From an uncultured Pseudobdellovibrionaceae bacterium (GTDB lineage Bacteria > Bdellovibrionota > Bdellovibrionia > Bdellovibrionales > JAGQZY01), in NCBI GenBank assembly GCA_964588335.1, contig CAZPOV010000011.1, positions 6,784 through 70,783 of the forward strand: 64,000 bases of DNA. Direction: 5' to 3'. Below the pieces are notes generated by a model. That model searched no databases and had not been told where the DNA came from. It saw only the letters and a list, made by a program, of their open reading frames with translations. Shown one piece after another: positions 51,975 through 59,501 of this stretch (the first letter of the stretch is position 1; every line of letters starts with the position of its first letter). Both the position numbers and the translations under genes were made by a program.

Positions 51975-52931
51975 ATGAGCCGAATTGTTTTGGCAGTCGT
52001 ACTATTTTTTCAATTGTCTGTATCGATCGCACAAATAAAACTTGAGACCGGGGGTCCAAAGTTCGTCAATGACCGAGTTGTTGTCGAGGTCAACGACGCC
52101 GGTGAGATGGTGACTTTAAGTAAAAAAGAGTACCTCGAAATGACCGGCCGTCAGTACATGAAGCATTTGGTTGGTTTTTTTAACTACAAAATGTCATGGC
52201 AGACGGTGGCGTCGTATATCACCTCAACCATGGAAGCTGAGTTTGACGTTTATATCTTTATAAACGTTGATTATGAAGGTCGTCAGAATATGGCTGATCC
52301 CATACCGGCGCAGTACATGAAAGTCATCGAGCGAACACAGGCTGATCAAAAACTTTTCGTGAGAGAAAAAGGCCAAGTGGTGGGTATTCGTAGCGATGTG
52401 GCTGGAAACAATGGCGAACCAGCCTTTGCGACGACCATAGAGGCTCTGGATGGAACAAAAATAAATGGACATGGAATTATGAGAGACCTTATTCCAGTCT
52501 CCAGTGGTGCCAGCCATAAAGCCGCGGATCCTCAACCCTATGTAGACACTCCCACCGGTATCTATCGAATTAACCATTCGAAATCCGATGTCAAAAGATA
52601 CGGTACGGGGATGTGGCACTCCCTCTACTTTGACCTCATATATCCTTGGGGGAAATGGTCGGGATTGGCGGTTCATGGAACCAGCACCAATAAGTACAGT
52701 TTGCTTGGTAAACATCAAGACTCCCACGGTTGTGTGCGGGTGAAAAAGCCAGTCGCCAACCTCATGTATGAAAACCTGATCAACGATGGTAGCTATTGGG
52801 CTGACGATCTTCCCAACTTAAACAACAAGATGCGCTTGAAATCTGAAAACGGCGAGACAAAGCCTGGAGTTAGAGCTCTAATTATTCTGTTTTATGGATA
52901 CGATAGTTCAATGGAGCAGTGGGACACCTAA
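51975..52931 (+). CDS. L,D-transpeptidase (YkuD) domain protein
   Basis: Signal peptide. Catalytic block LAVHGTSTNKYSLLGKHQDSHGCVRV (H...SHGC(V/I)R). Confidence 0.75.
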   Translation: MSRIVLAVVLFFQLSVSIAQIKLETGGPKFVNDRVVVEVNDAGEMVTLSKKEYLEMTGRQYMKHLVGFFNYKMSWQTVASYITSTMEAEFDVYIFINVDYEGRQNMADPIPAQYMKVIERTQADQKLFVREKGQVVGIRSDVAGNNGEPAFATTIEALDGTKINGHGIMRDLIPVSSGASHKAADPQPYVDTPTGIYRINHSKSDVKRYGTGMWHSLYFDLIYPWGKWSGLAVHGTSTNKYSLLGKHQDSHGCVRVKKPVANLMYENLINDGSYWADDLPNLNNKMRLKSENGETKPGVRALIILFYGYDSSMEQWDT

Positions 52932-56200: not shown

Positions 56201-59200
56201 TTATTGAGCCGTCTTCTTAGGGTTTTTGATAAGCTGTTCTTCAATTTTTTCAATTCGCTGTAATAAAAGGTTAATTTTTTCATCTCTTTGTTGAAGATCA
56301 TTTTTAAGATTTTGAATTTCAATATCTTTCTGAGTCTTCTGTTTTTTCTGGACTGTCTTCAAAGCTGAAATTTCTGATTGCAAACCGCTTTCAGTTTTTT
56401 GTAGACGCAGATTCAGCTCTCGAATGGCTTCAATAATAGGAGCAATAAGCTTACTGTAAGCCACCGATAGAAGGCCTTGATCGCTTTCTGAAACCGCTTC
56501 AGGGAAAACCTTTTGCACATCCTGGGCGATCACCCCCATGTCTTGACCCGAGGGAAAATCGTAATCTCGAAATTCATCGCGACGCCAGTCATAGAGGACA
56601 CCGTGAATCTGTAGTAAGCTCTCCAAAGGATTATCGATAGACGAGATATTCCTTTTAAGACGTCGGTCGGACAAGTTATTGTAGGCCCCCACACCGGCCA
56701 CCGAACCATTGACGTGAAGTTTGTAGCTAGGATTGGTCGTACCAATTCCCACATCACCACTTGGGGTCACTACTAAAAAGTCATTGTAGGTGGTGCCGTC
56801 AAAATAATTGAACATCAGTTTGTCGGCGTCAGCTCCAATCGTAGTTCCATTTCTATAAGCAAGACTCCACTGGTTGCTGTTGGAGGTGTTCGCTAAATTC
56901 AGGTAGGAATAATTGTAGGCATCTAACGACGATCCGATGGCAGTGAGGCTGGCACCAGCGGCACCATTGTAGACTTCAACGGACCCGGCGCCAAAGTCAC
57001 CGCCCACCTGTAAGGTTTTTGTCGGGTTTGGATAATTAATACCGACATTTCCATCCGGGTCTATTCGCATGCGCTCGGTGGGCTCAGAGGTTGTCCCGTC
57101 GTTTGTTTTAAATACAAGAAATCCCTCATGGTTGCCATTGGCAAAAGTTCCTGAGGTCTCACCAGTGATAGTGGCAACGACCTGAGACGCTGAACCATCG
57201 TAGGCTTCATATCTTATTTGTCCAACAGCCTGACTGGTAGGCGTAATCGAGGTTGAACCTTTAGCTCCGCCATAATTAGTAAATTTAAAAATGGGATAAC
57301 CACCCGTAGCGCCTTCCCAGTTTTTAATATTCACTTCTGGGTAACGTGCCACACTCGAGCTAGTATTAACAACCTGCATTTTCACAGAGGCATTGTCTGT
57401 TTCCAGTTGAAGTTTATTTGACGGAGCGATTGTTCCAATACCTACGTTGCCGTTACCATCAATCGTCATTAAGTTGAAAGCTGTCGTGGTATCCTGGTCA
57501 TAAAACTCAAAGTTTAGGGTTTCCCCGGATCCACCATTGGCATCAATTCTAAATTCATCCTGTGCATTTGTGAAACTGCTAGTGTCTGAAAAGGCAAGAG
57601 TCGCTGAATCGTTCTTCAGCCAAAATTTTCCCAGGGATCCTCCACTCAGCTTTTGTGACCACAAAGGTTCATTTTGAGTGGAGTTTCTAAAGTAAAAATA
57701 ATCACCATCATTTCTAAACCCGACGTCATCCTGGGTGCCACCCGCATTATCATTGAGAATAAGCTGATAGTTAGTCCCATCTCCTACGATTTCCAAGTAT
57801 CCCGCCGGAGTCGTGGTGCCAATTCCCACGTTTCCAGATGCATCGATCGTCATTCTTTCAAGATTGTTTGTTCCCAAAATCAATTGATTAGCCTCGTAGT
57901 TCCAGACTGCAGCATTACCACCGGAACCATACCCCACATAAAAACCATCATTGATTGTTGACCCTGAATTTGTGTTTGTGAAAAGAGCCGCTGAGCGGCC
58001 GGCTCCTGTATTTAATTGAAGCAATTCATTTGGTGTTGTGGTGCCAATACCTACATTTCCAGAGGAGGTTATGGTCATCGCTTCGTTGCCACCGGTGGAA
58101 AAGCCGATGGTGTCGGGAGCAGATGAGAACATTCCGGTGTTAGTATCCAGGCCAAAGCGAAAATCAGGGGTTGTGGCATCTCCATTGTCAGCCATTAAAC
58201 CTCCCCAAGACACAAACCCGTTAGAATCCAAGGTGGCAATATTTCCTCCGTTGATGGAATAGCGAATTTCACCGCTGCCTAGGGTAAAAATTCCCGTATC
58301 CGGATCGGAATTGAAAGCCAGGCCGGGAGTGGCGCCGGTTCCATCGGCAAATAAAATTGTGTCACCGGCACTGTAGCCGCCACCTCCAGCCGATAGGTCC
58401 AAACAATTGGCATTGTTCTCATCACAAATTTCAGCTGCGTTGATTGACCCGGTGTTGACGTCTAATTCTACGGCCGGTGTTGCTGTACCTATGCCAACGT
58501 AACCATTGTTAGTGATTCTCATCCTTTCTTGGGCCACATTGGTTGTATTAGGCACAGTATAAAAAACCTGCTGGTTTCCGCCAGCTGTACCTGAATGTTC
58601 TTCGGATGCGAATATTTCCCATGCTGTGTGTTTCGTGCTCCCATTATCGACATTTCGATGAACGATCTTCGCTATAGAATCATCGCTGCGTACAGAAAAG
58701 TCATAACTGAAAAAATCAAGACTCTTGCCGTTAGCGAGACCGGCCAAATCGACCCATTGACCATTGACATAGGCTTCCATCGAAGTTCTTGTTGAGTTGT
58801 AGCGAACCATCCCGTTTTGCGCCGATACAGGCCGAGTGGCTATTGTTCCACCAGGGGTAATTATCGCCCCTGTTCCATTGACGTGAAATTCAGCGCCCGG
58901 TGTTGTTGTGCCAATGCCGACATTTCCAGAGGTATCGATTGTCATATGAGTTGTGTCATTGGTTTCAAAAGAGAGGGAGTTATTGTCATTGGTACCGATG
59001 ATCATCGGTGCGGCGAAACTATTGCCATTGTTCAGAACCCCTGATACCGAAGAGGTGAGAAAGTCGACCCAAGCCGAGCCATCACAAAATCCTACTAGGT
59101 TGGTGCCATCAGCATCATAGCGGATCGCTCCAGCAATGGTGGAATCACATGTTGAAGTCGAATCGCCCACACGAAGCGCGCCACCACCTGAAAAGTCGGT

Positions 59201-59320
59201 ATCCACTTGTGCCGACGCTGAACTGGGATTGAAAAAAAGTGTGGATATAAAAGTGGCCAGCAACACCGAAGCCGATGTTAGGGACGCAAAGAGAGAGCTC
59301 AAAGGTCTTCTGGTTTTCAT
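56201..59320 (-). CDS. giant secreted tail-fibre-like repeat protein, paralogue 2, with C-terminal intramolecular-chaperone (peptidase S74-like) domain
   Basis: Signal peptide MKTRRPLSSLFASLTSASVLLATFISTLFFNPSSASA|QV (ATG at 59320; the tracked TTG at 59428 is unlikely). Seven GNVGIGT-type punctuations. C-terminal SDRRLKRNI...VLYDW...GVIAQDVQKVFPEAV...VAYSKLIAPIIEAIREL. Confidence 0.75.
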   Translation of the reverse strand: MKTRRPLSSLFASLTSASVLLATFISTLFFNPSSASAQVDTDFSGGGALRVGDSTSTCDSTIAGAIRYDADGTNLVGFCDGSAWVDFLTSSVSGVLNNGNSFAAPMIIGTNDNNSLSFETNDTTHMTIDTSGNVGIGTTTPGAEFHVNGTGAIITPGGTIATRPVSAQNGMVRYNSTRTSMEAYVNGQWVDLAGLANGKSLDFFSYDFSVRSDDSIAKIVHRNVDNGSTKHTAWEIFASEEHSGTAGGNQQVFYTVPNTTNVAQERMRITNNGYVGIGTATPAVELDVNTGSINAAEICDENNANCLDLSAGGGGYSAGDTILFADGTGATPGLAFNSDPDTGIFTLGSGEIRYSINGGNIATLDSNGFVSWGGLMADNGDATTPDFRFGLDTNTGMFSSAPDTIGFSTGGNEAMTITSSGNVGIGTTTPNELLQLNTGAGRSAALFTNTNSGSTINDGFYVGYGSGGNAAVWNYEANQLILGTNNLERMTIDASGNVGIGTTTPAGYLEIVGDGTNYQLILNDNAGGTQDDVGFRNDGDYFYFRNSTQNEPLWSQKLSGGSLGKFWLKNDSATLAFSDTSSFTNAQDEFRIDANGGSGETLNFEFYDQDTTTAFNLMTIDGNGNVGIGTIAPSNKLQLETDNASVKMQVVNTSSSVARYPEVNIKNWEGATGGYPIFKFTNYGGAKGSTSITPTSQAVGQIRYEAYDGSASQVVATITGETSGTFANGNHEGFLVFKTNDGTTSEPTERMRIDPDGNVGINYPNPTKTLQVGGDFGAGSVEVYNGAAGASLTAIGSSLDAYNYSYLNLANTSNSNQWSLAYRNGTTIGADADKLMFNYFDGTTYNDFLVVTPSGDVGIGTTNPSYKLHVNGSVAGVGAYNNLSDRRLKRNISSIDNPLESLLQIHGVLYDWRRDEFRDYDFPSGQDMGVIAQDVQKVFPEAVSESDQGLLSVAYSKLIAPIIEAIRELNLRLQKTESGLQSEISALKTVQKKQKTQKDIEIQNLKNDLQQRDEKINLLLQRIEKIEEQLIKNPKKTAQ

Positions 59321-59501
59321 AAACTGTACAAACGTTACCACGTCTATGTATCGGGAATTTTTACAAAAAGCTTGATGTTTAATCTCTTTTCGAAGCACTT
59401 TATTTATAGGTTTTAACAATTGAGCCAAAGAATTCTTTGATTGAGACTTAGCGGCGAACTTGCTAGTTTAGGGATCTAAAATTTCAATAAGGAATATCAA
59501 A

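Follow-up and report, generated by a model that had tools for sequence, protein, structure and literature searches.

We analysed a 64,000-nucleotide stretch of DNA (hereafter the window) from an uncultured Pseudobdellovibrionaceae bacterium (assembly GCA_964588335.1, contig CAZPOV010000011.1, positions 6,784 to 70,783), concentrating on the 3' end of a gene encoding a long fibre protein. The mechanical open reading frame (ORF) at 56201..59428(-) encodes 1075 amino acids (aa) from a TTG first codon, and its C-terminus reads exactly as it was quoted in the first-pass annotation of this DNA. The gene as annotated publicly, 56201..59320(-), encodes 1039 aa and starts at Met37 of the 1075-codon ORF, as does the identical public protein P0096 (start at 59320). 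Residue numbers below follow the 1075-aa ORF and are converted to the annotated protein by subtracting 36. The 36-codon extension upstream of Met37 (59321..59428(-), MAQLLKPINKVLRKEIKHQAFCKNSRYIDVVTFVQF), which precedes the signal peptide, is probably not translated, and an ORF started at the TTG would leave just 73 bp to the divergent proS gene.

The annotated protein starts with MKTRRPLSS...NPSSASA followed by QVDTDF, as is typical of a Sec signal peptide. We read this predicted signal peptide (residues 37-73, 59210..59320(-), MKTRRPLSSLFASLTSASVLLATFISTLFFNPSSASA then QVDTDF) directly from the sequence, in which a basic N-terminal part is followed by hydrophobic residues and an A-S-A site. 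It is directly followed by a conserved N-terminal domain (residues 74-183, 58880..59209(-)) and by the fibre shaft (residues 184-919, 56672..58879(-)), which carries seven G-x-V-G-I-G-T-x-x-P-x-x-x-L loop motifs. The remaining part of the gene, 56201..56671, encodes the C-terminal module that is our main subject: a compact alpha/beta core of the Peptidase S74 type (residues 920-990, 56459..56671(-)), delimited by Pfam, AlphaFold2 and Foldseek, then a single helix predicted by AlphaFold2 as the terminal coiled coil (residues 991-1068, 56225..56458(-)), and finally an end that is unstructured in the model, NPKKTAQ plus the stop codon (56201..56224(-)). A promoter and terminator scan around the gene gave counts at shuffle level and was uninformative.

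The Pfam model Peptidase_S74 (PF13884) matched residues 920-979 with an E-value of 4.5e-17 and a score of 62.5 bits, which is far beyond chance given the cut-off of 22, so that the profile search proposed in the first-pass annotation returned a clearly significant result. The dyad motif S920-D-R-R-L-K925, of the SDxxxK form, contains the predicted nucleophile Ser920 (codon 56669..56671(-)), with the putative scissile bond Leu919-Ser920 in front of it, and Lys925 (codon 56654..56656(-)), the predicted general base of a Ser-Lys dyad, which occupies the invariant column K69 of alignment A1. The same spacing is found in T5 (SDARLK) and endoNF (SNGERK), and the position of Ser920 matches S1264 of T5, S911 of endoNF and S782 of Bd3182. 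S920, D921, K925, Q969 and P976 of the fibre lie in columns that do not vary among 48 aligned homologues, as does a glycine upstream of the cleavage site. Modelling of the last 219 residues by AlphaFold2 on the basis of this 48-homologue alignment gave a mean predicted local distance difference test score (pLDDT) of 90.8 and a structure made up of tip strands, a compact core and one helix, the beta strands of the fibre tip standing before the S74 core. Foldseek searches against the PDB matched this model to MyRF ICA (7dc3, E 2.7e-6), endoNF (3gw6, E 7.7e-3), GA-1 (3gud, E 9.9e-3) and T5 pb1 (4uw8, E 1.2e-2), all at a probability of at least 0.93. With the profile match, the invariant S, D, K, Q and P residues and the fold matches pointing the same way, the earlier reading of the SDxRxK... 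pattern as an S74 chaperone and auto-cleavage module is correct.

The Ser-Lys dyad mechanism of S74 chaperones has been described previously (PMC4690869, PMC8326128). The segment 56201..56671 comprises 156 codons plus the stop, giving a predicted released fragment of 156 aa and 18.06 kDa, and a cut before Ser920 would leave a mature fibre of ~846 residues ending ...GAYNNL. Both the ...GAYNNL end and the 156-aa fragment that had been predicted earlier would follow from the S74 assignment; the mass of ~17 kDa given with them has to be raised to the calculated 18.06 kDa. As a separate observation, many large relatives hold two to four S74-like stretches, some of them far from the C-terminus (four in P0100, of 5473 aa, three in P0123, and further cases in P0103, P0116, P0121 and others), and therefore S74 modules can be internal or repeated.

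C-terminal to the core, AlphaFold2 gives an uninterrupted helix of 78 aa and ~115 Å (positions 135-212 of the modelled fragment) with a block pLDDT of 95-98. The residues after ...IEAIRELN (residue 1006) number 69, compared with the ~65 heptad-like residues noted initially. Three zones can be distinguished along the helix. The first, residues 991-1010, has strong Ile and Leu residues at the a and d positions (I995a, I998d, I1002a, L1005d, L1009a) and is common to all S74 modules. The second, residues 1011-1031, is polar and rich in Lys and Gln (QKTESGLQSEISALKTVQKKQKTQKD), with E, Q and K at poor a/d positions and with a shift of the heptad register, and is the least conserved part of the helix in comparison with an orthologue from another genome (L001; 48% identity). 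The third, residues 1032-1068, contains around five clean heptads (I1038, L1041, L1045, R1048, I1052, L1055, I1059, I1062 and L1066). At the extreme C-terminus, QRIEKIEEQL is similar to the final residues of T5 pb1 (ARLSAIEDKL) and endoNF (ARLSALEQK), and a motif of this form occurs within the last 30 residues in 62 of 200 relatives.

The first-pass annotation had described the coiled coil as appended after the chaperone domain, which is not how we would now put it. The Pfam S74 model has 58 positions and ends at ...PEAV; the strand LLSVAYSKL and the helix start IAPIIEAIRELN lie outside it, and both align across all homologues and with phage proteins. The C-terminal helix of T5 pb1 (residues 1371-1394) forms a central triple coiled coil at which folding has been proposed to begin (PMC4690869), and in MyRF the helix alpha4 (N670-K705) is the main driving force of trimerisation and mutations at its a and d positions block cleavage (PMC8326128). 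Since the C-terminal helices of these two solved structures are the chaperone core, the coiled coil is an integral chaperone element, and the predicted helix of 78 residues corresponds to the usual terminal coiled coil of an S74 module, lengthened ~2-3 fold. Two other descriptions of the helix were rejected. As an added domain with a family of its own it found no support in Pfam and PDB searches with the tail, which gave chance coiled-coil matches only (Mtr4, CAST, T4 lysozyme fusions; E > 0.01), and a helical hairpin or six-helix bundle does not agree with the one continuous helix given by AlphaFold2.

To place this length among relatives, we counted the residues after the conserved ...EAIRELN position, 69 in the fibre, as tail length. 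Among 79 viral loci from IMG/VR with a complete end, found in a scan of viral contigs with core alignment A2, tails had a median of 11 and a maximum of 23 residues, none reaching 50, and the modules measured 89-109 aa. The back half of the module is matched by 504 of 50,697 phage genome records, and in none of the 50,697 did the alignment extend across the whole tail, the best being Tlsvirus fibres, which reach query position 84-90 of 111. Measured from the Ser to the end, the modules of named phages comprise 154 aa in K1F endoNF, 133 in T5, 134 in Tlsvirus 011D2 (with ~55 aa of heptads) and 111 in Vibrio phage K566.

Cellular and metagenomic relatives have far longer tails, with a median of 44 residues, a 5-95% range of 17-67.5 and a maximum of 77 among the best 116 single-domain relatives, of which the fibre lies at about the 95th percentile. 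These relatives were drawn from 1.84 billion cluster representatives with the 87-residue core only as query, and therefore the tail did not bias their selection. When both searches were pooled, 200 relatives with a terminal S74 module had a median module length, counted from the Ser, of 124 aa, with at least 156 aa in 15 of them (7.5%). In related loci from Bdellovibrionales, Pseudobdellovibrionaceae and Bacteriovorax the modules extend over 123-155 aa, of which heptads make up 50-75 aa. In the L001 orthologue the module is colinear, has no internal gap, measures 153 aa and ends 3 residues earlier; its identity to the fibre is 84% in the core, 56.5% in the tail and 68% in the distal heptads, and the best full-length BLASTP local alignment has 38% identity. 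The long predicted tail is therefore unusual compared with phages and ordinary among the putatively secreted bacterial fibres, i.e. a quantitative extension. That a long coiled coil after the chaperone core is foreign to phage examples, as first noted, holds (0 of 79 viral loci with a tail of at least 50 residues, no phage record spanning the tail), yet such tails are routine in bacterial relatives. The finding is in this respect largely ordinary: the terminal coiled coil has ~2-3 times the phage length yet is common among bacterial relatives.

The rest of the protein leads to a family of predator surface fibres. Mosaic adhesive trimer (MAT) fibres, of which 13 of the 21 in Bdellovibrio bacteriovorus HD100 end in an S74 domain, are located at the surface or in vesicles and have a role in prey recognition or entry; their hallmark is a signal peptide followed by a conserved N-terminal domain of ~130 aa that is common to all paralogues (PMC10769870). 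In phmmer searches against the PDB the shaft of the fibre matched the MAT structures Bd3182 (8ojn, E 7.2e-12), Bd1334 (8oml, E 3.8e-9) and Bd2133 (8ond, E 1.4e-5), as well as 8on4 (E 1e-4), and Foldseek searches with the C-terminal model also returned the Bdellovibrio fibre tips Bd1334, Bd2133, Bd3182 and Bd2439 (8oml, 8ond, 8onc, 8onf). The N-terminal domain is also found, likewise at the N-terminus, in 13 relatives from the database and in the neighbouring ORF of the window, with 55-76% identity (49% in one partial match), and the proteins sharing it differ in their C-terminal tip, which is of the S74, Peptidase_G2 or PF26696 type or absent. Of related loci we found 19, most of them from genomes of Bdellovibrionales, Pseudobdellovibrionaceae and Bacteriovorax, with several per genome and up to six; the named relatives are Peredibacter, Bdellovibrio svalbardensis and Halobacteriovoraceae proteins. 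The gene is, as far as its sequence allows it to be classified, a new member of the S74-type MAT fibres. Relatives of the fibre were also seen in the candidate phyla radiation (CPR)/Patescibacteria, where Patescibacteria group bacterium UBA5124 (L014) has a short-tailed S74 module of 97 aa.

The genomic surroundings are those of a chromosomal gene. The flanking genes encode ClpB, RibBA, an NtrY/NtrX-like two-component pair, a Lon N-domain protein and a YkuD L,D-transpeptidase, and further neighbours are ProS (divergent, 59502), a SpoU methylase and EF-Tu; no phage genes were found among the 10 flanking ORFs. The phage tail-fibre context implied by the first-pass annotation thus has to be given up, as the signal peptide, the housekeeping neighbours, the MAT-like shaft and the several Bdellovibrionales paralogues all speak otherwise, and the gene is, by these predicted features, a chromosomal, signal-peptide-bearing fibre gene of a Bdellovibrio-like bacterium and not a phage gene. 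The YkuD-type L,D-transpeptidase (51975..52931(+); PF03734, E 1.2e-9), itself secreted-looking, adjoins the pair formed by the fibre gene and its paralogue.

This tandem paralogue (P0247; 53134..55968(-), 944 aa as annotated), encoded on the same 113,880-bp contig as the fibre, has the same signal peptide and N-terminal domain and a Peptidase_G2 end. The two N-terminal domains are 76% identical, and the mature start QVDTDFSGGG is common to both proteins. The Peptidase_G2 auto-cleavage domain (PF11962), with the motif TGADYAEYF, was detected just over the cut-off of 25 (25.9 bits, E 7.7e-6). The paralogue ends in a ~50-residue helix of its own (positions 180-229, ending QRLEKIEKLLEK), as seen in a poor single-sequence AlphaFold2 model (pLDDT 41.6), and BLAST weakly matches its tail to those at the very C-terminus of S74 fibres. 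A PDB sequence search with its C-terminus found no solved G2 relative. The MAT paper (PMC10769870) does not mention a G2-type tip, and a further CPR/Patescibacteria locus, from Candidatus Saccharibacteria (L019), matches part of this G2-type C-terminus with 39% identity over 102 aa.

Considering these data together, we regard it as probable that the segment serves as intramolecular chaperone and self-cleaving protease (Peptidase S74/CIMCD/ICA) at the C-terminus of a Sec-secreted trimeric surface fibre of the MAT family, with the helix most likely acting as a stronger trimerisation nucleus. By analogy with the solved homologues, the three C-terminal helices would join after export as a parallel trimeric coiled coil, and their association would draw three compact S74 cores together, which would in turn be the template on which the intertwined beta-helical tip forms, starting at its C-terminal and ending at its N-terminal side. 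In a correctly formed trimer Lys925 would then activate Ser920, which would cut the Leu919-Ser920 bond, freeing the 156-residue, 18-kDa fragment and leaving the mature fibre of ~846 residues that ends ...GAYNNL. The lengthening of the helix, which is typical of the secreted bacterial versions and was not seen in phage, would most likely strengthen the first of these steps. A fibre exported unfolded through Sec has to nucleate from its last-emerging end without the proximity provided by a polysome, and a longer coiled coil raising the affinity of that first step is therefore the most economical reading.

The comparison of relatives with and without a signal peptide is consistent with this proposal. 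Among complete relatives of at least 400 aa, scored with a crude signal-peptide rule and not independent in sequence, the median module length was 135 aa with a signal peptide (n=70) and 101 aa without (n=90; Mann-Whitney p = 3e-9), and after collapse to 33 core-sequence clusters the association persisted (rho 0.43, p 0.014, medians 94 vs 64). The occurrence of longer tails with signal peptides is suggestive, though no proof, of an adaptation to folding after export. A further feature was noticed in 22 of the 200 relatives, namely a terminal Cys-pair motif, LCxxDPxAxxC, placed after the coiled coil (e.g. ...IKAYLCQKDPNAPFCQK; P0101, P0106, P0113, P0120, P0125, P0136 and others, as well as the region L015:6001-6435 of Bacteriovorax sp. 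DB6_IX); the fibre of the window does not carry this motif. The Cys pair might form a disulfide-locked cap, in keeping with a folding site that is extracytoplasmic and oxidising.

Several observations weigh against our interpretation. The steps of the proposed mechanism are all transferred by homology, and for the neighbouring-chain Arg that endoNF and T5 use we identified no equivalent in the fibre. The trimeric state of the coiled coil is deduced from the heptads only, the model being a monomer, and the helix may consist of two coiled-coil segments joined by the non-canonical stretch at 1011-1031 rather than forming one continuous coiled coil. On the N-terminal side, the homologue search with the N-terminal domain returned short fragments only and gave no link to the named HD100 MATs, and the homology of this domain to its HD100 MAT counterpart is putative, being suggested by the architecture. 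The association of tail length with signal peptides loses significance at 13 clusters (p = 0.17), and we rejected the view that coiled-coil length rises with the needs of a longer fibre, protein and tail length giving a Spearman rho of -0.15.

An alternative that we consider unlikely, although it is the best of those remaining, is that the released 18-kDa fragment has a second role after cleavage owing to its long coiled coil, e.g. that of a stable trimeric factor which is carried to the prey or kept there. The gap-free maintenance of tail length between two divergent genomes, with distal heptads 68% identical, would be in line with such a role, as would the better conservation of the C-terminal module in comparison with the shaft (84% in the core vs 38% in the best full-length local alignment) and the presence of a similar terminal helix in the unrelated G2-type paralogue. 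Furthermore, a C-terminal mCherry on Bd3182, which would be expected to depart together with the chaperone, showed bdelloplast localisation, and its signal was lost in the S782A mutant (PMC10769870); however, misfolding would equally explain this loss. The tail holds a helix only, its family matches in the Pfam and PDB searches being chance coiled-coil ones, and it diverges faster than the core (56.5% vs 84% identity), as expected of a purely structural coiled coil. Its length, moreover, varies continuously among relatives, from ~10 to 77 residues. No second activity is indicated by the sequence.

We find it very improbable that the S74 domain is a degenerate, non-cleaving relic with the coiled coil staying in place as a permanent distal stalk or cap. 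Such a reading could appeal to the assignment of cleavage by homology only, and to the relatives in which internal S74 stretches are followed by long sequence, so that S74 is not always terminal, but every invariant catalytic and structural position is intact in the fibre, the profile score is high, and a member of the family, Bd3182, does cleave itself, at S782, while its S782A mutant does not (PMC10769870). Finally, we give hardly any credence to a phage or prophage tail fibre or tailspike with an ordinary phage chaperone, even though S74 is best known from phage fibres, the module is matched by 1,182 phage records and its fold by 392 viral S74 models in BFVD (E <= 1e-3), and the relatives are named 'tail fiber domain-containing protein' in databases, as the protein has an N-terminal signal peptide, a shaft matching Bdellovibrio MAT structures and a tail longer than any viral example found, and the locus has housekeeping neighbours, no phage genes and several paralogues per Bdellovibrionales genome.

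We believe that the main value of the chaperone and protease assignment lies in a correct annotation of the gene, which is one of a tandem pair of MAT-type predator surface fibres and not a phage fibre. MAT tips are thought to determine prey recognition, and the S74 module shows where the mature ligand-binding tip would end (...GAYNNL). In addition, viral and secreted bacterial modules are sharply set apart by the length of their terminal coiled coil, a difference that may reflect where the fibre must fold; if this is true, it would be a guide for the design of constructs in fibre expression and tip swapping. Going further, we tentatively put forward a broader proposal, which we hold to be possible rather than probable: secreted bacterial S74 fibres would have systematically lengthened the terminal coiled coil (50-78 residues vs 20-35 in phages) to nucleate trimers after Sec export, the released trimeric 18-kDa rod might also act at the predator-prey interface, and the helix of the G2 paralogue would identify such coiled coils as a portable 'trimerisation starter' of unrelated self-cleaving chaperones.

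Among solved structures, MyRF ICA (7DC3) is the best match to the module in both structure and sequence (Foldseek E 2.7e-6; phmmer E 1.1e-6). The two share a compact core without long tentacles, an upstream V-G-I-x-T-x-x-P loop motif and a C-terminal helix that in MyRF drives trimerisation. MyRF differs in being a eukaryotic membrane-bound transcription factor, in which a 36-residue helix (four heptads, 51 Å) is followed by more protein. T5 pb1 (PDB 4uw8) has the same Ser-Lys dyad (S1264/K1269), the same C-terminal position and a terminal helix that forms the central triple coiled coil; it carries 50-Å beta-hairpin tentacles and a 24-residue helix in a module of 133 aa, whereas the fibre of the window has no tentacles and a 78-residue helix in a module of 156 aa. 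The released fragment of the founding S74 member, endoNF of phage K1F (3GW6), is with 154 aa of nearly the same size as the one predicted here, yet its length comes from long tentacle insertions and its helix is short (~25 residues by sequence), while in the fibre of the window a minimal core is combined with a helix that accounts for the length. The side tail fibres of Tlsvirus (Escherichia phages vB_EcoS_011D2, Sip and tiwna) likewise have a tail rich in heptads behind a compact S74 core. No phage tail that we found was longer than theirs (~55 aa of helix in a module of 134 aa, counted from the Ser), which is still ~20-25 residues shorter than in the fibre, and these phage proteins lack the context of a signal peptide.

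A further close known system is that of the Bd3182-type MAT fibres (8ojn/8onb/8onc). The fibre of the window belongs to another, uncultured host lineage and is related to Bd3182 by distant sequence identity only. The study of Bd3182 (Caulton et al. 2024, PMC10769870) contains no account of a terminal coiled coil, the word 'coiled' occurring 0 times in it. The resemblances extend from the signal peptide and a conserved, putatively homologous N-terminal domain through a ~1000-aa fibre, by prediction trimeric and beta-helical here, with G-x-V-G-I-G-T-x-x-P loop motifs to a C-terminal S74 module with the SDxxxK motif, to the released fragment (141 aa in Bd3182, 156 aa predicted here) and to the presence of several paralogues per genome.

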